37,884 nucleotides of DNA from Candidatus Zixiibacteriota bacterium (GCA_029933635.1 JAOZNS010000001.1:1-37884); one strand, 5' to 3'. Counted from the stretch's first letter, positions 6,730 through 35,931 are shown. Program-made: numbers and translations. The notes: generated by a model not told the origin, from the letters alone.

Positions 6730-7932
6730 ATGAGATTCATGTTCCATATCCTAAAATTTAAGTGGATCATCCTCTTGAATGTAGTTTTTTGCCTCTGTGT
6801 TTTTGTCCCCCCTTCCATTCAAGCGAGAGGCGATACATCGATGGCGAAAATCACCCCCCCATTCGATTTTAAAGTGGAGGATACTCCTGACGATGGCGGA
6901 GGAAGTTTGAGATTATTCTGGAAACCTTCTTTAGATGATAAAGAAGAGATCGGCGACATTGACGGATATGAGATCTTTAGAGCAAGCAGAAAAGATACGA
7001 TCCTTAAGTTGATCGCCCAGGTGGGCGATAATACCACCTTTTTTACCGATGTGGCTCTGAATAACCAAGAAGAATATTTTTATGCCATCAGAGCCAAAAG
7101 AGACGATTCTTACTCCGTGTTTGTTCGTTCCAACTTCGTCCGACCCAAAATAAACTGGTTCAGAACCGGTCGGATCAACATGCTGGCTTTGCTTCTGATC
7201 TTCTCCGCCTCGGTTCTTTTATACATACGTGGGGCCAAAAGAGGGAAAAGCCTCTTCATTCGCAAGTTAGCTGGCTTGGAAGCCATGGAGGAGGCGGTGG
7301 GAAGGGCCACCGAGATGGGAAAGCCGGTGCTGTTTATTCCGGGGATTCAAGAGCTGGATGAGATTCAAACCATCGCAGGTCTTTCCATCTTAGGTAAAGT
7401 TGCTCGCATCACTGCACAGTATGATACGCCCCTTTTGGTTCCGGTGCTTTACCCCATGGCATTGGCCGCCGCAGGAGAGGTGGTGAAGGGAGCTTATCTG
7501 GATGCGGGAAAGCCTGAGAGTTTCAAACCAGATATGGTGCGGTATGTGGCCGGGGAGCAATTTGCCTATGTGGCCGCAGTAAATGGAATAATGCTGAGGG
7601 AAAGACCCGCGGCCTGTGTGTATATGGGCGCTTTCTATGCTGAATCTTTGCTTCTGGCGGAGACCGGATTTGCCGCAGGTGCCATTCAGATCGCCGGAAC
7701 CGCAAATCCCGAACAGCTACCCTTCTTCATCGCCGCCTGCGACTATACCCTGATGGGGGAGGAGCTTTATGCGGCTAGCGCATATCTGTCCAAAGAGCCC
7801 TTGATGTTAGGAAGCCTTAAAGGTCAGGATCTAATTAAGATCCTTTTGGTTGGCTGTATCATCTTGGGTGCAATTTTTGAACTGCTCCAAATCGGCAATG
7901 GATTTTTCGCAAAATTATTTCTGGAACGATAA
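6730..7932 (+). CDS. Hypothetical envelope protein with a signal peptide, an FN3-like beta-rich segment, a TM helix, a ~230-aa domain of unknown function and a C-terminal TM helix
   Basis: 400-aa ORF. Hydrophobic N-terminus 'WIILLNVVFCLCVFVPPSIQA' and internal TM 'INMLALLLIFSASVLLYI'. No catalytic motif was recognised. The distal domain resembles ORF 10858-11694 by eye. Confidence 0.6.
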   Translation: MRFMFHILKFKWIILLNVVFCLCVFVPPSIQARGDTSMAKITPPFDFKVEDTPDDGGGSLRLFWKPSLDDKEEIGDIDGYEIFRASRKDTILKLIAQVGDNTTFFTDVALNNQEEYFYAIRAKRDDSYSVFVRSNFVRPKINWFRTGRINMLALLLIFSASVLLYIRGAKRGKSLFIRKLAGLEAMEEAVGRATEMGKPVLFIPGIQELDEIQTIAGLSILGKVARITAQYDTPLLVPVLYPMALAAAGEVVKGAYLDAGKPESFKPDMVRYVAGEQFAYVAAVNGIMLRERPAACVYMGAFYAESLLLAETGFAAGAIQIAGTANPEQLPFFIAACDYTLMGEELYAASAYLSKEPLMLGSLKGQDLIKILLVGCIILGAIFELLQIGNGFFAKLFLER

Positions 7933-14952: not shown

Positions 14953-15588
14953 ATGTTCGAATCCCTGCTTGAGCCGATTGGAAGATGGATAATTGGCTTC
15001 ATCTCGGAGATAGGTTATGTGGGTATAATAATCACCATGGGAATTGAAAGTGCCTGTATCCCTCTTCCTTCGGAGATCATCATGCCCTTCTCCGGCTACT
15101 TGGTGTTCACCGGAAGATTCAGCCTTTGGGGCGTTTCCGTTGCTGGTGCCTTTGGCTGTGTGGTTGGATCGGTGGTTGCCTACTGGGTGGGAATTGGAGG
15201 AGGACGTCCCTTCATTCAAAAGTATGGGAGATACGTTCTGATCTCATCCAAAGACTTAGCTTTCGCTGATCGCTGGTTTGAAAGATACGGAGAGTGGGCT
15301 ATATTCTTCTCTCGCCTTCTGCCAGTGATAAGAACCTTCATCTCGCTTCCGGCAGGAATCGCCCGGATGAACTTTTTGAAATTTGTCATCTATACCTTCC
15401 TCGGCTCTTTGCCCTGGTGTTTTTTGTTAGCCTATGTGGGAAAGATATTGGGTGAAAACTGGATGAGCATAAGAGTCTATTTTCATCGGGCCGACATCTT
15501 CATCGGGATAATCATGGTCTTGGCAATAGCCTATTTTTTATATCGGCACTTAAAACCGGAGAAAAAAAACGGCTCTTCTCCCTTTTAG
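14953..15588 (+). CDS. DedA family membrane protein
   Basis: 211 aa. 'GIESACIPLPSEIIMPFSGYL' and 'FFSRLLPVIRTFISLPAGIARM' match DedA/SNARE-associated family signatures. Confidence 0.85.
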   Translation: MFESLLEPIGRWIIGFISEIGYVGIIITMGIESACIPLPSEIIMPFSGYLVFTGRFSLWGVSVAGAFGCVVGSVVAYWVGIGGGRPFIQKYGRYVLISSKDLAFADRWFERYGEWAIFFSRLLPVIRTFISLPAGIARMNFLKFVIYTFLGSLPWCFLLAYVGKILGENWMSIRVYFHRADIFIGIIMVLAIAYFLYRHLKPEKKNGSSPF

Positions 15589-15682: not shown

Positions 15683-16594
15683 TTACTCCGTTTTAATCCC
15701 ATGTGCCGCAGATGCTTGCTTTGTCTTTCCCACCCCCTTTGCCCTGTTCTCCACGCACTTGACCACAAAATCTCCTACTGAGCATCCCAGATCCCGGGCA
15801 ATTATTTTGCATTTTACCATCAAAAGAAAATAAAGCTTTTTGCCTTTCACCTCGCGTAGGGTCTCATAGTTTCCATGACCTTTGGCGATCACCAGATCAG
15901 CCCGGTCAAAGAGATTCTTGAATTCCTCCGAGCAATCTTTCAGGATGGTCCCAGGAGCATCTGAGCCGCTGGAGATGACCTTCGCCACTTGATCCAAGCT
16001 GGCATAATAGGCATCTTCGGAGGTGGCGTCGTTAATCACCGGGAAGCCACGAACCCCGTAGTAAATGTCCTCAGGAGGCATCTGTTCGATCAGAATCTTA
16101 TCAAAAAAAGTTTCTCCAGCATTGTCTCCCAGATAGAGGATCATGGAGGCTTCTTTTGAATCTTCTCTCAAACTTTCGGTATCATCTATGGCAGGTTTTG
16201 TGGACAACGCCTGATCGATCGTCTTCATCAGTTCAAAATGATGACGAGGACCAAAATCGATGATGTTTCCCGCTATGGCCATCCTCACCGCATAAACAAA
16301 TGGATCAGACGAACCGTTTACCTTCTCTTTCAAAGAAGGGTAAAGTTTTTTAGCTACATGGTTGAATTCCCTTTTAAGCTTGAAGAAGGGATCATGATTG
16401 TTTAACACCTTACGGATCACCCGATGGGCCTCACGGCCCAGATAAGGTGGAGGATGATGATAAGACACGCCGCTTAAAGTCATAAGCACCTTTTGGATCA
16501 ATTCCTCCCGTTTTTCCTCATCTTGGGTGAGCTGATTTGTCACATCAATTGCCTGCTCAATAATGCAGGGGATACATTCCAGATAAGTTCGCAT
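15683..16594 (-). CDS. DUF89 / ARMT1-like metal-dependent (damage-control) phosphatase family protein
   Basis: 303 aa. N-terminal 'CIPCIIEQA', plus 'YLGDNAGETFFD' and 'IAKGHGNYETL', which match DUF89 signatures as I recall them. Confidence 0.75.
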   Translation of the reverse strand: MRTYLECIPCIIEQAIDVTNQLTQDEEKREELIQKVLMTLSGVSYHHPPPYLGREAHRVIRKVLNNHDPFFKLKREFNHVAKKLYPSLKEKVNGSSDPFVYAVRMAIAGNIIDFGPRHHFELMKTIDQALSTKPAIDDTESLREDSKEASMILYLGDNAGETFFDKILIEQMPPEDIYYGVRGFPVINDATSEDAYYASLDQVAKVISSGSDAPGTILKDCSEEFKNLFDRADLVIAKGHGNYETLREVKGKKLYFLLMVKCKIIARDLGCSVGDFVVKCVENRAKGVGKTKQASAAHGIKTE

Positions 16595-16652
16595 CGAATA
16601 ACTCCATTAAATGATAAAAAAGACAGAAAAAAAGATCATCACGCTCCACTTT

Positions 16653-17612
16653 TTAGGCGATGACGAAATATGATTCCGACTCTTTCTCAATTTTCACTCT
16701 TTTTATTTTTTTACTCTTCTCCAAAGCCTGAAGATATTTGACAATCTCGTTGGTATGAACGCCCAAAGCTTTTGCCATCTCCTCTTTTCTGGTTGGTCTT
16801 CTCCTTAAAAGTCCAATTATTGCCTCCTCTAAATCCCTTTGATATGCCCTGTTGGTCGCCCTATCAAAATCTAAAATTAGCTCCACCACCAGTTTTGGAT
16901 CGAAGATCGATTTGATCTCAAGAAGCTTCTTTTCATCCAGTGGTCTAACCGTGTATTCTCCTGGAGGTCTGATTACGGTGTTGAGCTGAATTTTGTCTAC
17001 GTTCAGCTCCTGCACAAATCGATTTATTCTCTTAATCTCCTCTTCAGAATCATTTATCCCTTTCACCAACATCATCTCCAGATAGATTTTTGCTTTGAAA
17101 TCTTGGCAGAAAACTTTTATCCCCTCCAGTATTTTTTCAATCCTGAGTTTTTCTTCGGGACGATTGACCTTATTAAATATCTCTTTAGAAACTGCATCCA
17201 CCGAAGGAACGACCAGATCTGCCCAAGATAAGTCTTCTCTAACCTTTTGGTCCCACAATAAGGATCCATTGGTCAAAACCGCCACTGGAATTTGAGCGAA
17301 GCTTTTAATCCTCCGGATCATCTCACCAAGGTCCCGGTTTAAGGTGGGCTCACCTGACCCAGAGAAGGTTATGTAATCAATATCGCTGTTTTGATCTATC
17401 GCCTCCCTTATCTCTTCTATCACCTGGTCAATAGGGACAAAAGATCTCCTCTGGATGGTTTGATTGGTGGTCCTTCCCAACTGGCAATAGATACAATCAT
17501 AACTGCAGGTCTTATAGGGGATAACATCCACTCCCAGGGAAATTCCCAATCTTCTGGAAGGGACTGGACCATACACTATCTTTTCTATGTCTTTATCTTT
17601 TGAACTCATCAC
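16653..17612 (-). CDS. Radical SAM protein (COG0731-like) with a C-terminal winged-helix-like segment
   Basis: CxxxCxxC motif 'CSYDCIYCQLG' after 'YGPVPSRRLGISLGV', plus 'TFSGSGEPTL'. The C-terminal 'RPTRKEEMAKALGVHTNEIVKYLQALEKSKKI' looks like an HTH. Confidence 0.85.
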   Translation of the reverse strand: MMSSKDKDIEKIVYGPVPSRRLGISLGVDVIPYKTCSYDCIYCQLGRTTNQTIQRRSFVPIDQVIEEIREAIDQNSDIDYITFSGSGEPTLNRDLGEMIRRIKSFAQIPVAVLTNGSLLWDQKVREDLSWADLVVPSVDAVSKEIFNKVNRPEEKLRIEKILEGIKVFCQDFKAKIYLEMMLVKGINDSEEEIKRINRFVQELNVDKIQLNTVIRPPGEYTVRPLDEKKLLEIKSIFDPKLVVELILDFDRATNRAYQRDLEEAIIGLLRRRPTRKEEMAKALGVHTNEIVKYLQALEKSKKIKRVKIEKESESYFVIA

Positions 17613-17655
17613 AAAAACAAAGTCCCATCAGGAACGATTCAGCAGCTGACCCTTT

Positions 17656-18534
17656 CTAACCTTTTGCAAGACGATGGATTTTGTTCCATATATCTTTAAG
17701 TTCCTCCACCAGATTTGAATTTGAATATTCCACCATGGTCTTGCCCTCCACCATAGCTTGGGTGAAGATGTTGTCGAAAGGGAGTTTTCCTACAATCTCA
17801 ATGTTCTCCTGACGACAGAATTTTTGAATCTTTTGGGTATTCTCTAAATTTATATCATACTTGTTAATCAAGACCACGGATCGAATCCTAAAATGCTGGG
17901 TCAAACTTAAAACCCGTTTCAAATCTGATATGGCGGAGACGGTGGGCTCGGTCACTATCACCACCAGATTTGTTCCAGTGATGGAGGCAATCACCGGACA
18001 GCCAATTCCAGGTGGTCCATCGACTAAGACTAACTCTAAATTGTTCTTCTGGGCAACCTCTCTGGCGTTTTTTCTTACCACGGTGACCAGCTTCCCTGAG
18101 TTTTCCTGAGCAATCCTTAACTTGGCATGAACCATAGGACCATACTTTGTCTGGGAAACGTACCATTCTCCAGAAATATTCTCCTTCATTTGTATGGCTT
18201 CAACCGGACAGATCAAAGCACAAACCTGACAACCCTCACAGGCAAGCGGGTCAATGGTTACTGGTTTAGGACCCCTATTCCCCTTGATGGCCTCGAATCT
18301 ACATGCCTCCAAACATTTACCACAGCAGGTGCACTTCTCTTCATTTAGCGTAGCCTTTTTACCTCCTATAAATGGCTGGCTCTCCTTTACGCAGGGATGA
18401 AGAAGGAGATGAAGATCTGCGGCATCCACATCGCAGTCTGCCATCACCTTATCTTTGGCTAAAACGGCAAAGGAGGCGGTGATCACCGTTTTGCCTGTTC
18501 CACCCTTTCCACTGATTACGGTTATCTGCTTCAT
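17656..18534 (-). CDS. MinD/ParA-superfamily P-loop ATPase with an inserted 2x[4Fe-4S] ferredoxin domain (COG1149-like)
   Basis: Deviant Walker A 'GKGGTGKT'. Cys clusters 'CTCCGKCLEAC' and 'CEGCQVCALICP'. The start overlaps the stop of the upstream paralog by 4 nt. Confidence 0.85.
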   Translation of the reverse strand: MKQITVISGKGGTGKTVITASFAVLAKDKVMADCDVDAADLHLLLHPCVKESQPFIGGKKATLNEEKCTCCGKCLEACRFEAIKGNRGPKPVTIDPLACEGCQVCALICPVEAIQMKENISGEWYVSQTKYGPMVHAKLRIAQENSGKLVTVVRKNAREVAQKNNLELVLVDGPPGIGCPVIASITGTNLVVIVTEPTVSAISDLKRVLSLTQHFRIRSVVLINKYDINLENTQKIQKFCRQENIEIVGKLPFDNIFTQAMVEGKTMVEYSNSNLVEELKDIWNKIHRLAKG

Positions 18535-19385
18535 CTACCCTTCACCTCATCTTCAATCCGACTCCACAATCTCCTAAAGATTTCTCGATAACGCCCTGCA
18601 TTGACCAACAGAGGAATTCCACGAGAATAAAGAAAGGCGATCTGCTCATCATAAGGTATCTGAGCCATTATGGGGACCCCCTTCTTTGCACAATATTCTT
18701 TTACCTTTTCATCGCCGATACCTGCACGGTTGATGAGCACACCATGTTTGATCACAAGCTTCTCCAAAAGTTCCACCGTTAGTTTCAAATCATGCAATCC
18801 GAAGGGGGTCGGTTCGGTCACCAGAAGGCAGAAATCGCTATGGTTAATTGCTTCGATAACCGGACAGGAGGTTCCAGGAGGAACATCAATGATGGTGATG
18901 CCATTTGGACCAGTGGTTTTCTTTACCGCCCGGATTACGGGTGTTGCCATGGGCTCACCCACATTGAGCCGACCTTGAACGAATTTAATTGAGCCTGACC
19001 TTCCCTCTTCCAACACCCCGATTTCTCTTTCCCTTTCACTTATTGCGTTCTCTGGACAGAGCAAACTACAACCTCCGCATCCATGGCAAAGCTCTGGAAA
19101 AGTCAGCACCTCTTTCTTTAAAACCACGATAGCATTGTAGGCACAGACCTTAGCACATTCGCCACAGAAATTACATTTCTTCAGGTCGACATTGGGAATA
19201 AGCAGGCTCACCGGTCGGGCTTTTTCGATCTTGGGTTTTAGAAAGATATAGGCATTTGGCTCCTCAACATCACAGTCCAGAAACTGAAGACCTTGCGATT
19301 TCTCACCTGATAAGAAAAGGGCAAGATTGGTGGCAACGGTGGTCTTGCCGGTTCCCCCTTTTCCACTGGCAATGGAGACGATCAT
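18531..19385 (-). CDS. MinD/ParA-superfamily P-loop ATPase with an inserted 2x[4Fe-4S] ferredoxin domain (paralog)
   Basis: 'SGKGGTGKTTV', 'CNFCGECAKVC' and 'CHGCGGCSLLCP'. Colinear with 17656-18534. Confidence 0.85.
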   Translation of the reverse strand: MIVSIASGKGGTGKTTVATNLALFLSGEKSQGLQFLDCDVEEPNAYIFLKPKIEKARPVSLLIPNVDLKKCNFCGECAKVCAYNAIVVLKKEVLTFPELCHGCGGCSLLCPENAISEREREIGVLEEGRSGSIKFVQGRLNVGEPMATPVIRAVKKTTGPNGITIIDVPPGTSCPVIEAINHSDFCLLVTEPTPFGLHDLKLTVELLEKLVIKHGVLINRAGIGDEKVKEYCAKKGVPIMAQIPYDEQIAFLYSRGIPLLVNAGRYREIFRRLWSRIEDEVKGR

Positions 19386-19412
19386 TGATAAACGTTTCCC
19401 GAAAATATATTT

Positions 19413-19820
19413 TTACCTATCAGGATACTTAATGGCAATAGCTCCCTGAGGGCATCGTTTCACACAGGCTAAGCAGGCGATACACTTTTTCGTATCAATC
19501 TTGGCTAACCCCTCGACTGCGATTGCTCCCACGGGACAAACTTCATAACAAAGCCCACAACCTGTGCATTCCTCTTCGTCTACGACGGCCGTGGCTTCAC
19601 CCCGAAACCTTTGGGAGCCAATTCCCTTTTGATCACCAATCTTCTGCCTGATTTCTTCCAACCGCCGGGAAATAATCTTGACCCGCTGTTTTAAAAGCTC
19701 TAATTCCCCTTCCGGAGTCAACGGGGAAAAATCGGTAGGAGGTGGGTGCTCCGTTCCTCTCCAGTTCACGAATCTGTCCCTTCTTCCCCGCCCTGATCGA
19801 AAACGATCATCTCTTCTCAT
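19413..19820 (-). CDS. 2x[4Fe-4S] ferredoxin-domain protein with an Arg-rich / coiled-coil N-terminal region
   Basis: 'CTGCGLCYEVCP' and 'CIACLACVKRCP'. N-terminal 'RRDDRFRSGRGRRDRF' followed by the coil 'ELELLKQRVKIISRRLEEIRQKI'. The start is uncertain: ATG 19820 avoids overlap with the FmdB-like gene, while the track start at 19940 would overlap it by about 100 nt. Confidence 0.65.
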   Translation of the reverse strand: MRRDDRFRSGRGRRDRFVNWRGTEHPPPTDFSPLTPEGELELLKQRVKIISRRLEEIRQKIGDQKGIGSQRFRGEATAVVDEEECTGCGLCYEVCPVGAIAVEGLAKIDTKKCIACLACVKRCPQGAIAIKYPDR

Positions 19821-19842
19821 TTTTCCACTCTTTTTCGAACGG

Positions 19843-20091
19843 TTATCTATCTCTTCTGCAGACTCCATCGTCTGAACAAGGAGGCGTGGAGCATCGCTCC
19901 TCCCGTCCACAGCAGGTGGTTCCTCCAGTGGAGGAACCACCCATGATAATGGAACCTGGAGAGGAGATCAGTCTTTTCACCTTGGTGGAGCCACATTCGG
20001 GGCAGGCTGGATGTTCCCTTCGTGTAGAGCTTCTCTGAAGGACTTCGATCACCTTTCCGCAATTTTCACATCGATATTCATATATAGGCAT
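19843..20091 (-). CDS. FmdB-family zinc-ribbon protein with a Cys-rich C-terminal tail
   Basis: Hallmark 'MPIYEYRCENCG...CPECGS'. The tail 'TTCCGREERCSTPPCSDDGVC' follows. GGAGA SD upstream. Confidence 0.8.
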   Translation of the reverse strand: MPIYEYRCENCGKVIEVLQRSSTRREHPACPECGSTKVKRLISSPGSIIMGGSSTGGTTCCGREERCSTPPCSDDGVCRRDR

Positions 20092-20187
20092 ACATCGATC
20101 TCCTTCTCATTCCCATATGAACGAGGTTTTTCAGATCTCAGGTATGAATTCAAGATTGGGAATTGCCAAAATCTTGATTTTGAGGTT

Positions 20188-20418
20188 TTATTCTCTTACC
20201 ATTTTGGTTCCGCACTCAGGACAGGTCATATCATAACAGGGGGTGCCTCTTGGATGAGGAACTTTTGCTCCGCATGAGGGACACACACAGTTTCCCCCAG
20301 GTCCAGCTCCGGGGCGGTTGCCACCCATTCTGCCTCTGCCTGCTCCACGTCCCATTCCCATACCTCTTCCGGTTCCGGGTCCCTGACCCAAAGGTCCTGT
20401 TCCATTTCCCCTTGGCAT
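20188..20418 (-). CDS. Small protein with a DUF5320-like N-terminal motif, an RG-rich linker and a C-terminal zinc ribbon
   Basis: ATG 20418 is preceded by AAAGGAGAG. 'MPRGNGTGPLGQGPGTGRGMG', then 'GRGAGRGRMGG', then 'CVCPSCG...CPECG'. Confidence 0.65.
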   Translation of the reverse strand: MPRGNGTGPLGQGPGTGRGMGMGRGAGRGRMGGNRPGAGPGGNCVCPSCGAKVPHPRGTPCYDMTCPECGTKMVRE

Positions 20419-20450
20419 TTTTTCATCTCTCCTTTCACAAAGTTTTGTGA

Positions 20451-20852
20451 TCAAACGGATTTGTCATGATGGTGCTCCCCATGATCACATTCGTTCTTCT
20501 CAACTCCATAACCTCTACCTGAGCCGGGCTTACACAAGCTTTCTCCACCTTCCAGCGTCCCGGAAATCAGCTTTTCTATCACCTCACTGATCCGTCCGGT
20601 AACTCCTACCACGGTCTGAATTCCTTTTTCAGCAAATAGAGCCTCAGCTCGTCTTCCTATTCCGCCAGCTATAAGACATTCTACTCCTTTTTGGACAAGA
20701 TACTGAGGAAGAAATCCCGGCTGATGTCCGGGATTTTGCACCAGCTCTTTGCTCAGGATGTTCTCCCCCTCTATCTCCACGATGGTAAAGGTTGGACAAC
20801 GACCGAAATGAGGGGATACATAATCGCCATCTGTTGAGATCGCCACCTTCAT
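20451..20852 (-). CDS. NifX/NifB-C-terminal-like (dinitrogenase FeMo-cofactor-binding fold) protein with a Cys/His-rich tail
   Basis: 'MKVAISTDGDYVSPHFGRCPTFTIVEI' and 'CLIAGGIGRRA' are typical of the Nitro_FeMo-Co domain. The tail is 'CKPGSGRGYGVEKNECDHGEHHHD'. Confidence 0.85.
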   Translation of the reverse strand: MKVAISTDGDYVSPHFGRCPTFTIVEIEGENILSKELVQNPGHQPGFLPQYLVQKGVECLIAGGIGRRAEALFAEKGIQTVVGVTGRISEVIEKLISGTLEGGESLCKPGSGRGYGVEKNECDHGEHHHDKSV

Positions 20853-20867
20853 GTTCCTGCTCCTTTT

Positions 20868-21248
20868 TTAATTTTGACCACCCTGTCTTAACCCGAAATG
20901 CCCGGGCACCGAAGAGTTAGATAGCTCCTTCAGCTCCCCAGCCTTATATTTTGCTAAAGTCTCCTTGACGGTTCCGGAGGCACCCTGATATATCCTTATG
21001 TTGGCGGCTTTTAGCGTCTGGAAGGCATTGGGTCCCACATTTCCAGTTATCACTGCCACTGCACCTTTGTTAGAAATGGTTTGTGCCGCCTGAGGACCAG
21101 CACCGCCCATGGCACTTGTGGCTGGATTTAAAACCGCTTCAAATTTCTCTGTTTCCGGATCAATGATGATAAAGTAGGTGCATCTACCGAAACGAGGATC
21201 AACCAAAGCTTCAAGGTTATCTCCCTGAGAGGTTATGGCTACCTTCAC
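20868..21248 (-). CDS. NifX/NifB-C-terminal-like (FeMo-cofactor-binding fold) protein
   Basis: 'VKVAITSQGDNLEALVDPRFGRCTYFIIID' and 'VITGNVGPNAFQTL'. GTG 21248 with AAAGGGGA upstream is preferred over the longer track start at 21287. Confidence 0.8.
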   Translation of the reverse strand: MKVAITSQGDNLEALVDPRFGRCTYFIIIDPETEKFEAVLNPATSAMGGAGPQAAQTISNKGAVAVITGNVGPNAFQTLKAANIRIYQGASGTVKETLAKYKAGELKELSNSSVPGHFGLRQGGQN

Positions 21249-21269
21249 GATTTCCCCTTTCTTTTTTGC

Positions 21270-21306
21270 AAAGGGAGGAAGAAACAACTATTTTCTTCCT
21301 CCCTTT
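21270..21306. promoter_or_regulatory. Perfect 15-bp stem / 7-nt loop hairpin between two cistrons
   Basis: AAAGGGAGGAAGAAA (21270-21284), CAACTAT, TTTCTTCCTCCCTTT (21292-21306). The T-run follows on the + strand only, which is antisense to the genes. Confidence 0.7.
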
Positions 21307-21311
21307 TTGAC

Positions 21312-21713
21312 TTACTTTTTCTTCCCCTCCTTTTCCAGCTCACCTATTCGCTCCTGGATGGCTTCTATTTCCCTTTCCAGAGCGGCGAGCTCATCCTGGA
21401 GGAACTTCTTCTCTTCTTCGACGGAGGGCTTGGTGTATGGAGGAGCAGGATAGTAGGTGGAAGGATGATAGGGGTAAACCGGAGCATAGCCAGGAAAGCC
21501 ATATGCTCGGGTTCTCCACCACCATCCACGCCCTCCTCCAAAAGTTCGCCCTCTTCCCCCACCCCAGGGAAAGCCTCCCCTGCCCACTCCAAACCAGCCC
21601 CAACCAGGAGCAGGATTAAGATATCCGGGAACAGGATATCCTACGCAAAATCCTGCAGCTCTTCCGGTCATGGGTCCCAAACCCAAAGGACCGGTTCTGT
21701 CTCCAAATGGCAT
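21312..21713 (-). CDS. DUF5320-family protein (G/R/W/Y/P-rich low-complexity centre, C-terminal coiled coil)
   Basis: ATG 21713 is preceded by AGGAGGTGA. 'MPFGDRTGPLGLGPMTGRAAGFC', 'GGGRGRTFGGGRGWWW', and the coil 'LQDELAALEREIEAIQERIGELEK'. Confidence 0.75.
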   Translation of the reverse strand: MPFGDRTGPLGLGPMTGRAAGFCVGYPVPGYLNPAPGWGWFGVGRGGFPWGGGRGRTFGGGRGWWWRTRAYGFPGYAPVYPYHPSTYYPAPPYTKPSVEEEKKFLQDELAALEREIEAIQERIGELEKEGKKK

Positions 21714-21714
21714 A

Positions 21715-22548
21715 TCAGTCACCTCCTTTCACTTTAGAAACTTCCTTTGAGTTCAAAATCTTTACAATCTGATCTATCATCTGGTTGAAAATCTTGCCTA
21801 CCTCCGAATCCTTTTGTTCCCAGATAAAAGGTTTACCCTCATCTCCAGATAAAACTATCTGTGGATCAAAAGGGACTTTGCCCAAAAAGGGGACTTTCAT
21901 CTCCTTGGCCGCCTTTTCCCCTCCGCCAGTTTTAAAAAGATCCGTTCTTTTACCACAATGAGGACAGGTAAAGCCACTCATGTTCTCCACAATGCCAAGA
22001 ACTGGAACGTTAAGCTTCCGTGCAAAGTTGACCGCCTTACGGGAATCCAGCAATGCCACCTCCTGAGGAGTGGTCACGATGATGACCCCGTCAATATCTT
22101 TTATCAATTGAGCGATAGATAACGGCTCATCTCCGGTTCCGGGAGGAGAGTCGATTATCAGAAAGTCAAGCTCTCCCCACTCCACCTCCTCCAAAAATTG
22201 TTTGATGGCTCCCATCTTTAAAGGACCTCGCCATATCACCGGGCTCTGGTTATCTTTAAGAAGAAATCCCATAGATACCACTTTCAAATTAAAGGCATAA
22301 AGTGCTGGCTGAATCTTTTTACCATCCCCCACCAAAGCCATCTGTTCGATCCCAAGCATTTTAGGAATGGAGGGACCATGCACATCTACGTCCAGAAGCC
22401 CCACCCCCATACCCTTGTGAAGCAGTCCCAATGCTAAGTTTACTGCAATGGTGCTTTTCCCCACCCCACCTTTGTTGCTCATCACCAATATCTTGTGATG
22501 GATATTTTGAATGTTTTCACTTAAGTTTGTTTTTTCCTTAGGTTCCAT
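21715..22548 (-). CDS. Mrp/NBP35/ApbC-family ATP-binding Fe-S cluster carrier
   Basis: '[16 protein letters not shown]', 'DSPPGTGDE' and the CxxC motif 'CPHCG'. ATG 22548 avoids overlap with the DUF134 gene. The track start is 22620. Confidence 0.9.
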
Positions 22549-22580
22549 TACATCCTCTCTTGTTGAACTTCCCTGTTTTG

Positions 22581-23048
22581 TCACCTTCTTCCGCCTCTGT
22601 GGCATCTTCCTCGTCTCCAACCTCCGCGCAGAACATAACCTCTATCCCAGCCGATCGGATGAATTCTTATGCTTTCGCAGGACGGACAAACCTGTGGCAT
22701 GGGAACGCCGGGAGAAAGCTCCCATCTGTAACCGCAATCATCGCATATGTGTGGTCCTGCCATAAGGAAATCGCCCCCCTCTATTTTGATGGCTTTGGCA
22801 TTGATTAAAGCATCTGCAACCTTTCTTCTGGCTAAAGCCACAATTCTCCCAAAGGTGGCTCGGGAAACGTTCATTCTATCTGCGGCCTCCTCTTGCTGAA
22901 GCCCCTCCAGATCAGCCAGCCGTATGGCTTCGTGTTCGTCCACGGTCAGGACAATTTCTTCCAGAACCGCCAAAGGGACACCTCTTGGTTTAAAATACGT
23001 TGAGCTTGGTTGAGCCATCACCCAACGCCATCTTCTCGGTCTGGGCAT
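22581..23048 (-). CDS. DUF134 (UPF0251) predicted DNA-binding protein with a C-terminal zinc ribbon and an RG-rich tail
   Basis: 'FKPRGVPL...[48 protein letters not shown]' (sigma70-region-4-like HTH). Also 'CDDCG...CPSC' and the tail '[15 protein letters not shown]'. GGAGG SD 7 nt upstream. Confidence 0.8.
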
Positions 23049-23069
23049 TTAGGTGCCTCCAAAGGGTTT

Positions 23070-23083
23070 TGAGCATATGCTCA
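23070..23083. promoter_or_regulatory. Perfect 14-bp palindrome TGAGCATATGCTCA, a candidate operator upstream of the DUF134-led cluster
   Basis: Read directly from the sequence. It lies 9 nt upstream of the SD of the DUF134 gene. A possible TTAACA-N17-TATGAG promoter on the - strand overlaps it. Confidence 0.5.
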
Positions 23084-23259
23084 TAACTATTTACGGCATT
23101 GGTGTTAAAATATTTAGCTTTTATGAAAGATTTTTATTTTTTTCTTAATTGGTTGAAAAGGAAGGACAAAGGAGAGATAAATTTATACCCCCATAAGGGG
23201 TGAATAAACCATCAATGGCCCAAGGCTTTCAGCCCTGTCAGGGGAGATTTTGACAGCCA

Positions 23260-23908: not shown

Positions 23909-24463
23909 TCAATCAACATCTATAAGTATCACCTTGATCGGGACACTTGGGAAGTGCCTGCGTAGCCTTTCTATATCCCATATCAATTGTTCTCCATAGG
24001 ATACTCCAGTTGACATCTGATTCTTAAGGGCATAGCAAGGAACAATCTCCACCCCTACCTCGGCCTGACTCTCATTAAAAAAATATTGAAATTTTGCTAC
24101 GTCATAAAACATAAATGCATATTTTCCAAATTGTACTTCAACTAATATCCTTTCTTTCACATAATCAATTTGTTTAAACACCCCTTTTATCTCAACTTTG
24201 TATTTTTCAGACTTCACCGAAATAGTATAAGGATCTTTTAATTCTTTATAACCTCTTTTTCGAAATTCTTCTTTGAATCTTCTGTTCAATTCTTTGGGGG
24301 AATAGAGTAATTGTCCTTTTTTGGTTTTTTCTTTGCTAACTTTTGTCTTACTTGGAACTTTCACAGAAGAGATGATGTTATTTATTTCGTTTTCGATATG
24401 AGGATATCTTACTCTCAAAATTTCTAAACCCCCTAAATGTGAATATTCATATACTTTTCTCAT
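23909..24463 (-). CDS. Type II restriction endonuclease, BglII/BstYI-like fold
   Basis: 'QIDYVKERILVEVQFGKYAFMFYDV' matches the BglII catalytic D-x9-E-V-Q-F segment as I recall it. The flanking similarity is colinear. The ATG shares 1 nt with the methylase stop (TGATG). Confidence 0.7.
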   Translation of the reverse strand: MRKVYEYSHLGGLEILRVRYPHIENEINNIISSVKVPSKTKVSKEKTKKGQLLYSPKELNRRFKEEFRKRGYKELKDPYTISVKSEKYKVEIKGVFKQIDYVKERILVEVQFGKYAFMFYDVAKFQYFFNESQAEVGVEIVPCYALKNQMSTGVSYGEQLIWDIERLRRHFPSVPIKVILIDVD

Positions 24464-25368
24464 CAACTATCCTTTATATAACATCCCTTTACAAAAAGTG
24501 GAAGAGCGATTCTCTTTTTAGGTGGCTCATATATGGGTTTTCCCATAGGGCGAATTTTGAGTTTTCCTCTCGTAAGTTTGCAAATACGTTCTTCGGCAAT
24601 TTTTACATATTCTCTCACAATTTCTGATCCAGCGGTTTTCCTTTTATGTAGAATCGCTGCGATAGCGGTGGAACCAACTCCCATAAATGGATCAATTACC
24701 CAATCCCCAGGATTTGTTAATGCTAATATCAATCGCTCAATAAGCTCAACGGGGAACTGGCAAGGATGGATAGTCTTTTCAGGATGATTACTTTTTACAT
24801 TAGGAATTTCCCACACATCCGTTGGATTTTTACCCAGTGGATTACATGATAATTGACCCTTCTTAGGCCCTTTAAAGTATTTCTTCTGAGGATATTTAGG
24901 GGGAATCCTAACTGCATCTAAATTAAATATATAATCGTCCGTTTTTGTAAACCATAGAATCGTTTCATACCTTCCGGAAAAACGTTTAGTGCAGTGGAGT
25001 CCATGACCAAAATGCCAAATGATTCTATTGCGAAGTTTTAATCCGAGGGATCGAAATATCGGAAATAGAAGGATATCAAGTGGGATTATCTCTCCCTTAT
25101 TAATATAGTTGCCAATTTGCCAGCATATGCTTCCGCAATTTGCTAGTACCCTGATACATTCAGCGATTACCTGTTTCTGCTGATCAAGGTATACTTCAAG
25201 CTTTAAACGTTTCTCATATGGCTTCCCAATATTGTAAGGTGGAGAGGTAACGATAAGATTCGCCATTTTCGATGGCAATTTTCGAAGAAGTTGTAAGCAA
25301 TCCCCATGATATAAGATCACGTCGGAATCTAAGTCAAATGTTTTTGCTAATCTAATATCAAAAATCAT
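24463..25368 (-). CDS. Beta-class N4-cytosine/N6-adenine DNA methyltransferase (N6_N4_Mtase family)
   Basis: Motif IV 'IVTSPPYNIG' lies near the N-terminus and motif I 'DPFMGVGSTAIAA' near the C-terminus. SPPY is more typical of m4C enzymes. Confidence 0.9.
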   Translation of the reverse strand: MIFDIRLAKTFDLDSDVILYHGDCLQLLRKLPSKMANLIVTSPPYNIGKPYEKRLKLEVYLDQQKQVIAECIRVLANCGSICWQIGNYINKGEIIPLDILLFPIFRSLGLKLRNRIIWHFGHGLHCTKRFSGRYETILWFTKTDDYIFNLDAVRIPPKYPQKKYFKGPKKGQLSCNPLGKNPTDVWEIPNVKSNHPEKTIHPCQFPVELIERLILALTNPGDWVIDPFMGVGSTAIAAILHKRKTAGSEIVREYVKIAEERICKLTRGKLKIRPMGKPIYEPPKKRIALPLFVKGCYIKDS

Positions 25369-34410: not shown

Positions 34411-35056
34411 ATTTTTCTTTCAACTCCTTATATTTTTTAAGCACCTTGGACAGATAATAAGTGGGGAGCCTTTGACCTTGCTTCAATCGCAGTTTCAAAG
34501 CATTCTCCCCCAGATTGTATGCAATTATAGCCTTTTTCACATCCTTGAATTTCAGGATCAGCTCGAAAAGATACAAAGTTCCCAGCCGAACGTTAAAGGA
34601 TGGTTCAAAAAGTGAAAGCTCACCCCCCCAGTGTATCCCCCTTCTTTGAGAGAGGGCATGTCCCACCGACGGTTTCACCTGCATCAACCCTAAAGCTCCC
34701 ATCTCGGAGATCTGCCCCTTTCGGAAGGAGCTTTCGGTCAAAATCAAAGCCAAGATCAGCAAAGGATCATAACCATACCTTTTGCTTTCATCGTAGACGA
34801 CCTTGGTTAGCTGGGCGACCTCATGGTTCTTGAATCCCACTTGAAAATCTTCTATGATGTTCAATATCTTCAGCTTCTCCTCCAGCTCATTTATCTTCAG
34901 TTGTTGCTCCCTCAAGATACCCTGAAGCTGGTATCTCTCATGAATAAGATAGACGATGCAAACAGTCTGCCCTATGTAAAGTAGAACCAAAAGGACGCTT
35001 ACCAATTTGGAGACCAAAATCCCGCTTTTTCTGATAACCTTCACTCCCACTGTCAT
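34391..35056 (-). CDS. Membrane-anchored lytic transglycosylase (SLT domain)
   Basis: Catalytic 'LILTESSF' and 'GALGLMQV', with an N-terminal TM and coiled coil. ATGA overlap with the upstream gene. Confidence 0.8.
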   Translation of the reverse strand: MTVGVKVIRKSGILVSKLVSVLLVLLYIGQTVCIVYLIHERYQLQGILREQQLKINELEEKLKILNIIEDFQVGFKNHEVAQLTKVVYDESKRYGYDPLLILALILTESSFRKGQISEMGALGLMQVKPSVGHALSQRRGIHWGGELSLFEPSFNVRLGTLYLFELILKFKDVKKAIIAYNLGENALKLRLKQGQRLPTYYLSKVLKKYKELKEKYEQSKG

Positions 35057-35931
35057 ATCAACTCCTTTTTATAATCATCCTTTTCTGCCACAGAGAGATT
35101 CCTCTCTGGCGGAAAAAGCACCTCGGAGTCGAAAGAAAAATCAAAGAGGGCCGAAGCCAAGTTGGCTTTTAGCCATTCCGAGTACTCATCTTCTCGTTCT
35201 ATTACTCGCTGATAGAATGGTAAGGCATGAGGAAATCTTTTTCTCAAAAGCGAATTGATCCTTCTCTGTTTATCCTTAAGGTAGTTCATCCGGTCCAGAT
35301 ATATCTTCCTTATTCCTATCCCCTTCAACCTTTCAAAAACCGACTTCAGACACTCTATATTATCGGAGAAGAAGGGCAAAATCGGTCCAAAGAAGACGAA
35401 GGTGGGAATGCCTTCATCTCTCAGCCTTTTTAATCCTTCCAAGCGTCTTTTTAAACTGGATGCTCCCGGCTCAAATATTTTCTCCACCTCTGAATCGGCA
35501 CAGGTTATGGTGAAGCCAACCTCCTTTTCTTTTATCCTCCTTAAGATGTCTAAGTCTCTCAGGATCAAATCGGATTTGGTCTGGATGAAGATGGGAAAAT
35601 CAAAATCGGCTAAGATCCTTAAACACTCTCGGGTAAGACGATATTTCTTCTCCAGGGGCTGATAAGCATCGGTAACCGTGCCGATCATCACCGTGCCAGG
35701 CTTGACCTTTTTGATTTGCTCTTTCAGTCGATCTGCTATATTTACTTTAACGTCTACGAATTTACCCCATTTTTCGTTATGATTGGTATATTTCTTCATA
35801 AACTCAGCATAACAGTATACGCATCCATGCTGACATCCAATATAAGGATTAAGGGCATAATCCACCCCGCAAATTCCCGATTTGACCAAAGCATTCTTGC
35901 ATTCTTTTTCTGATATCTTAATTTGGTTCAT
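35053..35931 (-). CDS. Radical SAM protein, SPL/COG1533-like
   Basis: 'CQHGCVYCYA' CxxxCxxC motif near the N-terminus. About 290 aa, with layout like the spore-photoproduct-lyase-related family. Confidence 0.75.
   Translation of the reverse strand: MNQIKISEKECKNALVKSGICGVDYALNPYIGCQHGCVYCYAEFMKKYTNHNEKWGKFVDVKVNIADRLKEQIKKVKPGTVMIGTVTDAYQPLEKKYRLTRECLRILADFDFPIFIQTKSDLILRDLDILRRIKEKEVGFTITCADSEVEKIFEPGASSLKRRLEGLKRLRDEGIPTFVFFGPILPFFSDNIECLKSVFERLKGIGIRKIYLDRMNYLKDKQRRINSLLRKRFPHALPFYQRVIEREDEYSEWLKANLASALFDFSFDSEVLFPPERNLSVAEKDDYKKELI

Follow-up and report, generated by a model that had tools for sequence, protein, structure and literature searches.

An extended ORP-type gene cluster headed by DUF134 in Candidatus Zixiibacteriota, with a proposed functional link to archaeal IssA

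The orange protein (ORP) complex of Desulfovibrio vulgaris comprises Orp3, Orp4, Orp5, Orp8 and Orp9. Orp3 and Orp4 are paralogous MinD-type ATPases with two [4Fe-4S] ferredoxin motifs apiece, Orp5 and Orp8 are NifX-like proteins, and Orp9 (MrpORP) joins an Mrp protein and a Di-Nase domain in one chain; Orp3, Orp4 and Orp8 co-purify, and Fe-S clusters are transferred from MrpORP to Orp3/Orp4 in vitro (PMC6345978). The regulator OrpR turns on the orp genes only at very low redox potential, and the role of the complex in Desulfovibrio was still described as unclear in 2021 (PMC8359166). Here we analyzed a stretch of 37,884 nucleotides from a Candidatus Zixiibacteriota bacterium (GCA_029933635.1 JAOZNS010000001.1:1-37884; the window), in which twelve co-directional open reading frames (ORFs), g1 to g12, occupy positions 15683-23048 of the minus strand. 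The locus represents a known kind, the ORP complex system, in a new version that is extended and unsplit.

To our knowledge, IssA (SipA) of Pyrococcus furiosus is the only known biological thioferrate store. It consists of a NifX domain and a tail that is first proline-rich and further on cationic, aromatic and glycine-rich, including one Cys (PMC5524996), and P. furiosus lacking IssA grows poorly at high iron and sulfide (PMC8219758). No dedicated partners or regulator for IssA turned up in the literature covered. We infer, at roughly even chances, that the Zixiibacteriota locus encodes an ATP-driven module that stores or delivers iron-sulfide and belongs with archaeal IssA to one functional module.

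ORF calling on the window, with families assigned by Pfam and NCBIfam profile searches, gave the following genes.

g1, 22581..23048 (-): DUF134 regulator (Pfam DUF134, 4.6e-24).
g2, 21715..22620 (-), probable start 22548: Mrp/NBP35-type Fe-S carrier ATPase (PF10609, 1.4e-101).
g3, 21312..21722 (-), probable start 21713: DUF5320 protein (Pfam, 2.1e-23).
g4, 20868..21287 (-), probable start 21248: ORP/MTH1175-type NifX-fold protein (Nitro_FeMo-Co, 6.7e-25).
g5, 20451..20852 (-): NifX-fold protein with a Cys/His tail, HFGRC...CDHGEHHH (Nitro_FeMo-Co, 1.7e-22).
g6, 20188..20454 (-), probable start 20418: DUF5320-like Gly/Arg-rich N-terminus with a Cys zinc ribbon.
g7, 19843..20091 (-): FmdB-type zinc ribbon (Zn_ribbon_8) with a Cys-rich tail (Pfam, 8.3e-19; TIGR02605, 3e-19).
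g8, 19413..19940 (-), probable start 19820: Arg-rich N-terminus, DUF5320-like coiled coil (weak match) and 2x[4Fe-4S] ferredoxin domain (two Fer4 motifs, 1.9e-17).
g9, 18531..19385 (-): MinD/Mrp-class ATPase type A with an inserted 2x[4Fe-4S] domain, Orp3/4-type (CbiA, 8e-17).
g10, 17656..18534 (-): MinD/Mrp-class ATPase type B with an inserted ferredoxin domain (CbiA, 2e-12).
g11, 16653..17612 (-): minimal radical S-adenosylmethionine (SAM) enzyme with a C-terminal FaeA-like winged helix (Radical_SAM, 1.1e-20).
g12, 15683..16594 (-): DUF89/ARMT1 metal-dependent phosphatase (Pfam, 3.1e-70).

These results agreed with a first-pass annotation of the same DNA, which had described twelve single-strand genes separated by 4-nt overlaps up to gaps of less than 100 nt: g9 and g10 overlap by 4 nt (18531-18534), and the widest intergenic gap is 96 nt (20092-20187). 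All twelve of its family assignments held in the profile searches, that of g6 being weak (Pfam DUF5320, 23 bits against a cutoff of 27) and backed by custom hidden Markov models (HMMs) and by natural fusions. Taken as longest ORFs, g2, g4, g6 and g8 would begin inside the gene upstream; the internal starts at 22548, 21248, 20418 and 19820, respectively, appear more plausible as they fit the domain boundaries better. The g1 protein combines a sigma70-r4-like helix-turn-helix, a CxxC...CPxC zinc ribbon (Cys 102, 105, 121 and 124) and an Arg/Gly-rich tail, the latter two being present again in many DUF134 homologues. The g2 protein carries a GKGGVGKS Walker A motif and CPHC, and g3 consists of a cationic Gly/Arg/Trp/Pro/Tyr-rich segment (residues 1-95) followed by a C-terminal coiled coil.

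The closest described relatives were identified from profile and structure matches. The best NCBIfam model for g2 was MrpORP (389 bits, cutoff 450), matched over its P-loop part only (positions 2-257 of 365), and g5 matched the remaining Di-Nase part (positions 265-365, 95 bits); the Cys/His motifs of g5 were compared with the published Di-Nase motifs (PMC6345978), and its PDB matches were 2YX6 and 1O13. The structures matching g4 were the D. gigas ORP 2WFB (6.7e-21), 1RDU (8.8e-23), MTH1175 (1EO1, 1e-20) and TM1816. The g9 and g10 proteins share 28% identity and 8 invariant Cys and have the Orp3/Orp4 architecture. The MrpORP and 2WFB matches and the published Orp3/Orp4 architecture together identify g2, g4, g5, g9 and g10 as the predicted ORP core, in which the two-domain MrpORP (P-loop and Di-Nase in one chain) is split into g2 and g5; the fused form was found in 10 other loci of the survey below (10 ORFs with the Mrp-NifX architecture of MrpORP).

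At its core the cluster is therefore not uncharacterized, as the first-pass annotation had suggested it might be: this core is that of the ORP complex locus of D. vulgaris (Orp3/4/5/7/8/9; PMC6345978), which in part ties it to a defined pathway, an outcome that the annotation had named as one speaking against its proposal. Its view that the MinD-ferredoxin fusions have no demonstrated function is likewise outdated, since Orp3 and Orp4 co-purify and take Fe-S clusters from MrpORP. For DUF134 and DUF5320 that view appeared to stand, full-text searches for both names, for UPF0251 and for their COG numbers yielding incidental mentions only.

Like the orp locus of D. vulgaris Hildenborough (orp3-orp4-orp5 / orpR / orp7-orp8-orp9), the window cluster has adjacent paralogous MinD-type ATPases with [4Fe-4S] motifs, several NifX-fold proteins including an ORP-type one, an Mrp/NBP35 carrier and a dedicated regulator, and is of a kind confined to anaerobes. 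The two differ in layout, a single co-directional operon here against two divergent operons there, and in the regulator, which is DUF134 with a palindromic box here and the sigma54 activator OrpR there. Six genes appear to be extra to the orp locus, encoding DUF5320, the Gly/Arg-rich zinc ribbon, FmdB, the Arg-rich ferredoxin, the radical SAM enzyme and DUF89. No sigma54 activator was present among the window ORFs of at least 100 aa, where DUF134 is the head gene, and none was found beside a minimal cluster in Desulfobacter (L081), where one was looked for.

To define which genes travel together, we retrieved 80 loci with a custom MinD-ferredoxin ATPase profile from one-genome-per-species contigs and counted the families within 6 kb of the ATPase anchor by iterated HMMs seeded from the twelve window proteins; a subset of 33 loci had at least 5 kb on both sides of the anchor. 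The bacterial loci came from Zixibacteria, Ignavibacteria, WOR-3, Dehalococcoidia, Clostridia, Planctomycetota, Omnitrophota, Acidobacteriota and Desulfobacterota, and the archaeal loci from Bathyarchaeia, Methanocellaceae, Thermoplasmatota, Thorarchaeota and Altiarchaeota. The counts were as follows.

Second ATPase (paired): 77/80 loci.
NifX: 72/80 loci (two or more copies in 61); 32/33 in the subset.
DUF5320: 55/80 loci; 24/33 in the subset.
Mrp: 41/80 loci; 23/33 in the subset.
FmdB: 37/80 loci; 22/33 in the subset.
DUF134: 23/80 loci; 12/33 in the subset.
Radical SAM: 21/80 loci; 11/33 in the subset.
DUF89: 15/80 loci; 7/33 in the subset.
Small Arg-rich ferredoxin: 8/80 loci; 3/33 in the subset.

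Densities per 10 kb within 6 kb of the anchor and beyond were 2.36 and 0.12 for NifX, 1.39 and 0.04 for DUF5320, 0.28 and 0 for radical SAM, and 0.22 and 0 for DUF89; enrichment reached 5- to 35-fold or more for all families but plain ferredoxin. Across the 80 loci, all of other species, 389 of the 404 family genes within 7 kb lay on the strand of the anchor. In the close relative GCA_964588305.1, dnaX-ybaB-recR is followed by the same cluster, with radical SAM and DUF89 at its end. These counts separate a conserved core, consisting of the ATPase pair, NifX, DUF5320, Mrp and FmdB, from the recurrent accessories DUF134, radical SAM and DUF89. They bear out both the co-conservation of the genes in related organisms and the recurrence in anaerobic bacteria and methanogens that the first-pass annotation had put forward.

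Natural fusions linked the small proteins further. In 17 ORFs an ORP-type NifX domain is fused to a DUF5320 segment (GMGRG repeats and coiled coil), and in 3 ORFs NifX is fused to a g6-type Gly/Arg-rich zinc ribbon, one of them (L012 9428-10000) being co-linear with g4 and g6. One ORF (L069 8389-9264) encodes NifX, DUF5320 and a 2x[4Fe-4S] ferredoxin and mirrors g4, g3 and g8. Together with the Arg/Gly-rich tails that lie C-terminal to the CxxC...CPxC ribbon in many DUF134 proteins, the fusions reveal a cationic Gly/Arg theme common to g1, g3, g6 and g8. A NifX-DUF5320-NifX fusion in a single chain was also seen (L031 8456-9349).

The ATPase genes showed a fixed arrangement. In 72 of 73 pairs type A comes before type B, the median gap being -4 nt, and in many g9-family representatives (P0241-P0262) one chain of about 600 aa holds two MinD-ferredoxin units; this fixed order and overlap, together with the tandem fusions, suggests that g9/g10-type ATPases form an obligate heterodimer. 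The eight ferredoxin Cys are invariant and a ninth (Cys 174 of g9) is nearly so. Like the Mrp/NBP35/ApbC carriers, HypB and CooC, the pair has a deviant Walker A motif and belongs to a class with ATP-dependent dimerization, a likeness that extends to the CXXC motif of g2 and to the fold matches of g9; it differs from them as a predicted obligate heteropair with eight invariant ferredoxin Cys and one further conserved Cys in each chain. The AF2 model of g9 (predicted local distance difference test, pLDDT, 83) had archaeal MinD, ATPase-type HypB, ApbC, Cfd1 and NifH/BchL as its nearest folds. A structure-based function for g9 was rejected, as the model falls in this generic MinD/HypB/ApbC/NifH class, and no solved structure of this ATPase subfamily was found.

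A MinD-like role in positioning or division, with Fe-S clusters serving as redox sensors only, was first proposed for the Desulfovibrio ORP complex, and a related possibility is that the Arg-Gly-rich proteins bind nucleic acid or form condensates. Archaeal MinD is indeed the fold nearest to g9, loss of orp expression causes morphological defects and MrpORP sits at the cell pole (PMC8359166, PMC6345978), and the RG-rich motifs of DUF134 and DUF5320 have been flagged as possible quadruplex binders (PMC7565180). However, HypB, ApbC and Cfd1 match g9 as well as MinD does, and the MinD models TIGR01969 and TIGR01968 scored only 58 and 41 bits for g9 and 57 and 52 bits for g10, with cutoffs above 200. 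No minC, minE or other division genes were noticed with the cluster in the window or the 80 loci, the co-occurring partners are metal-sulfur proteins and metal regulators, and the Desulfovibrio authors themselves term the division role hypothetical (PMC8359166). We consider this explanation very improbable.

The iron-sulfide reading is connected to archaea first by a promoter element. Upstream of g1 the following feature was identified.

23067..23086 (-): predicted DUF134 operator, a 20-bp palindrome TTATGAGCATATGCTCAAAA that ends 21 nt upstream of the DUF134 ATG.

Inside it lies the perfect 14-mer palindrome TGAGCATATGCTCA at 23070-23083. The consensus box TTATGAGCATATGCTCATAA is found some 20-40 nt upstream of the DUF134 gene in at least 12 loci, which come from several phyla (Zixibacteria, Ignavibacteria, Dehalococcoidia, Desulfobacterota and others). 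It has recognizable variants in Bathyarchaeia and methanogen-related contigs and also precedes cluster heads in loci with no DUF134 gene in view. Variants of the box include TGAGC, TGGAC and TGTGC. At up to 3 mismatches, the box had 31 matches in 1.18 Mb compared with 1-7 in shuffled sequence, and it was present in 14/22 loci with DUF134 and 9/58 without (odds ratio 9.5, p = 5.5e-5). No second operator was found inside the window cluster at this threshold. The palindrome is thus predicted to be the DUF134 operator and to mediate autoregulation in the window.

A related palindrome precedes IssA-like genes. A degenerate pattern for MKIAIPTNGGG, derived from a published cloning primer, was used in a metagenome scan and retrieved nine Thermococcales-type ORFs, whose NifX domain was matched by the g4-type HMM at 1e-24 to 1e-31. 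In 9/9 of these genes (L088-L096) the start codon is preceded at 20-25 nt by the variant TGTGCATATGCACA, for example at L091 1818-1833 and L093 1332-1347; the variant comes just after a BRE/TATA-like element, and the flanking sequence is otherwise divergent. In 2 of the 9 contigs a DUF134 protein is encoded about 3 kb away. In L091, a DUF364/DUF4213 gene annotated as 'putative heavy-metal chelation' (1006-1746, -) is divergent from the IssA-like gene (1860-2477), with the palindrome in their common intergenic region.

The second connection is compositional. The g4 protein lacks a covalent cationic tail and ends ...PGHFGLRQGGQN, and the matching segment is separately encoded in g3; elsewhere, at least 17 NifX fusion proteins carry attached Gly/Arg tails. 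The tails of all nine IssA-like proteins come close to this g3 segment in composition, and one of them compares with it as follows.

g3 residues 1-95: G 25%, R 8%, W 6%, P 16%, Y 10%; one Cys; isoelectric point (pI) 10.2; net charge +8; G+R+W+P+Y fraction 0.65.
IssA-like tail (L093): G 19%, R 10%, W 7%, P 18%, Y 11%; one Cys; pI 10.2; net charge +9; G+R+W+P+Y fraction 0.65.

The background fraction was 0.24, and 7 of 5258 windows reached 0.65. The locus and IssA therefore resemble each other in the NifX-fold domain (the g4 subgroup), in the cationic Gly/Arg/Trp/Pro/Tyr-rich segment with one Cys and in a related promoter palindrome. They differ in that the tail is covalent in IssA and is here encoded on its own, in a DUF5320 protein with an additional coiled coil, and in that thioferrate storage was demonstrated for Pyrococcus, whereas the bacterial system is known here from genes alone.

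Published expression data added a further point of likeness, the co-induction of Mrp and probably of a MinD-ferredoxin pair in a related archaeon. In Palaeococcus pacificus, the top sulfur-induced genes are SipA/IssA with an adjacent NifX-like gene, followed by two adjacent genes annotated as 'CobQ with iron-sulfur cluster binding domain'; Mrp/NBP35 is among the induced genes too (PMC6981617). Judging by this annotation, the two CobQ genes probably encode a MinD-ferredoxin pair.

The metal context of the related loci was then considered. A Fur-family regulator, and not DUF134, heads the cluster in 8 of the 80 loci and also in L005 and L007; Fur-headed clusters include L005, L007, L010, L012, L021, L027 and L042. 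Recurrent neighbors encode FeoA, CGGC-domain proteins, metallo-beta-lactamase-fold proteins and cation diffusion facilitator (CDF) exporters with a NifX domain. CDF transporters with a NifX-like domain lie in or beside the cluster at L007 13269-14474 and in L053, L057 and L079.

These neighbors bear on a second explanation, namely that the system handles thiomolybdate, thiotungstate or copper, with the ORP-type protein binding a Mo(W)-Cu-S cluster like that isolated from D. gigas, and the gene cluster buffering or detoxifying thiometallates that arise spontaneously in sulfidic water. The D. gigas ORP structure has a close relative in g4, the cluster that ORP homologues bind non-covalently is [S2MoS2CuS2MoS2] (PMC6345978), and cationic tails would suit any anionic thiometallate. 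The nearest family models of g11 include MoaA and a tungsten-cofactor maturase, but these scores are generic (about 60 bits against cutoffs near 300). No molybdate, tungstate, copper transport or pterin genes were seen in the window, and none were noted among the inspected neighbors in related loci, where no dedicated search was made, while the co-occurring regulators and transporters (Fur family, FeoA, CDF) point to iron. We regard thiometallate handling as quite unlikely.

The radical SAM enzyme g11 raised a third explanation. It carries CX3CX2C at Cys 35, 39 and 42, belongs to a COG0731-type group and has four Cys in total, and it therefore offers no ligands for auxiliary clusters. Its AF2 model (pLDDT 77) had NifB 6Y1X (E 1.2e-9) and the pyruvate formate-lyase (PFL) activating enzyme 3CB8 as best PDB folds, with template modeling (TM) scores of about 0.5. 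A structure-based function was rejected because the match reflects a generic radical SAM core, NifB being effectively tied with PFL-activase and viperin. The TYW1/Taw1 wyosine synthase label (COG0731), which JGI places on g11 homologues, was also rejected, as TIGR03972 scored 41 bits against a cutoff of 318. In L070 10001-13600 (Smithella) and L086 3103-6060 (deltaproteobacterial), FmdB and radical SAM genes stand between both MinD-ferredoxin ATPase genes, the tightest radical SAM linkage seen. The accessory g12 matched the Pfam ARMT1-like domain at 237 bits; against two NCBIfam equivalogs, the first of them a damage-control phosphatase model, it scored 203 and 165 bits, below the cutoffs of 440 and 500. 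A literature search pairing DUF89 with radical SAM gave no relevant result.

By the third explanation, the cluster would be an assembly line for a distinct complex metallocofactor, comparable to that of nitrogenase, in which radical SAM and NifX represent a split NifB, the MinD-ferredoxin pair acts as NifH, Mrp feeds [4Fe-4S] clusters and the product passes to a client enzyme. NifB is itself a radical SAM-NifX fusion (PMC8351635), it is the best structural match of g11, and g9 has NifH and BchL among its nearest folds; the radical SAM gene lies between the ATPase genes in L070 and L086 and, in the 21 loci that have it, never beyond 6 kb. The locus and nif maturation also have in common a NifX fold that binds anionic metal-sulfur clusters non-covalently (as in NifB and NifX/NafY), a radical SAM enzyme and a dimeric Fe-S SIMIBI ATPase. 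Yet the NifB match is shared with PFL-activase and viperin, no NifB family model appeared among the best 25 of 38 NCBIfam matches for g11, and the four Cys of g11 leave none to ligate auxiliary K-type clusters. About 70% of loci lack the radical SAM gene, which therefore cannot be the core chemistry, and no conserved client or NifEN-like scaffold gene was seen. No nif genes, nifHDK and nifEN included, were detected by profile searches among the window ORFs of at least 100 aa, as the first-pass annotation had noted, and the ATPases have an inserted ferredoxin where NifH has a subunit-bridging cluster. These results make a cofactor assembly line unlikely.

The remainder of the window consists of housekeeping genes (cdaA, obg, dprA, ptsI, polA, coaE, dnaX, ybaB and recR). 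Promoter and terminator scans of the window gave matches at chance level, so operon structure and co-transcription are predicted only from spacing and synteny. One further feature was recorded at the end of the cluster.

15558..15581 (-): terminator-like hairpin downstream of g12, common to the convergent DedA/UptA gene (weak evidence).

Between recR and ybaB, a BglII-like restriction endonuclease and an N4/N6 DNA methylase are encoded at 23909-25368, where GC is 0.35 compared with about 0.45 elsewhere, and ybaB and recR adjoin in the related genome (L002/L003). On both grounds this restriction-modification cassette looks like a recent insertion. A DUF6754 protein of unknown function (6730-7932; 3.6e-117) and a second, unrelated radical SAM gene (35053-35931), which adjoins a MiaB/RimO-type gene, appear to have no connection to the cluster.

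Returning to the iron-sulfide module, we propose the following mechanism. Under strongly reducing, sulfidic and iron-replete conditions, g4 (ORP/IssA-type) and g5 (Cys/His type) would hold anionic metal-sulfide non-covalently, and the detached cationic Gly/Arg(/Trp) segments of g3, g6 and g8, some of them joined to a coiled coil, zinc ribbon or ferredoxin domain, would neutralize and scaffold it, replacing the C-terminal tail of IssA in trans. The translationally coupled SIMIBI-class heterodimer g9/g10 would use ATP and four [4Fe-4S] clusters to load or reductively mobilize the store. The Mrp carrier g2 may supply clusters to the ATPases and pass [4Fe-4S] to client proteins. The g1 protein would bind the palindrome before its own gene and control the operon, its Cys4 ribbon and Arg/Gly tail being candidate sensors of a metal-sulfide signal, and g11 and g12 would be frequent but optional accessories. 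The broader proposal of the first-pass annotation, an ATP-dependent, regulator-headed system that handles metal-sulfur species, fits this evidence.

Several results weigh against the iron-sulfide module. ORP as isolated holds a Mo-Cu-S cluster and not an iron species (PMC6345978), and P. furiosus without IssA still makes thioferrate-like iron (PMC8219758). The nine IssA-like proteins come from hydrothermal metagenomes through a primer-derived pattern and are not P. furiosus IssA itself. Pfam DUF5320 gave no match to these proteins, and homology between DUF5320 and the IssA-like tail was rejected, custom HMMs being weak and the BLAST match being lost under composition correction; since tail homology cannot be shown and the composition matches, we take DUF5320 for a functional analogue that replaces the IssA tail in trans, a likeness that is compositional only. 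The operator is imperfectly coupled to its presumed regulator, as 8 of 22 DUF134 loci lack the box at up to 3 mismatches and 9 of 58 loci without DUF134 bear it, and binding by DUF134 is predicted from position and co-occurrence. Likewise, the putative orthology of g9/g10 to Orp3/Orp4 (DVU2103/DVU2104) is drawn from domain architecture and genomic context, and the module leaves the radical SAM enzyme and the DUF89 phosphatase without explanation. The proposal starts from gene content, co-conservation, fusions, operator motif and compositional identity, all observed directly here, and borrows by analogy complex formation, Fe-S transfer and thioferrate storage, each demonstrated only for Desulfovibrio and Pyrococcus proteins; this organism is known from its genes, and we infer every link that joins the gene-level, motif and published observations.

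A wider form of the proposal is tentative, and we hold it to be rather doubtful as a whole. It would make DUF134 the dedicated factor of an ancient regulon of Bacteria and Archaea (palindrome TTATG-NN-CATATG-NN-CATAA) that joins Desulfovibrio ORP and Pyrococcus IssA as one machine for storing and mobilizing iron-sulfide, with DUF5320 as trans-acting thioferrate-binding tails and the MinD-ferredoxin heterodimer as an ATP-driven loader or unloader.

The analysis yields three leads: an extended conserved gene set, a predicted DUF134 operator that also occurs at the IssA-like genes retrieved here, and a reading of DUF5320 as an IssA-like tail in trans. Described as specific to anaerobes and important for growth, the ORP complex has posed an old open question that these leads make testable. 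If the links hold, the widespread DUF134 family would gain a candidate regulatory role with a 20-bp site, and the MinD-ferredoxin pair, Mrp and the equally widespread DUF5320 family would become candidate partners of IssA-type proteins. If true, the proposal would also provide a rationale for orp expression only at very low redox potential, conditions under which sulfide is probably present. These leads bear on the acquisition, storage and detoxification of iron and sulfide in strict anaerobes, which the ISC and SUF paradigms cover poorly.

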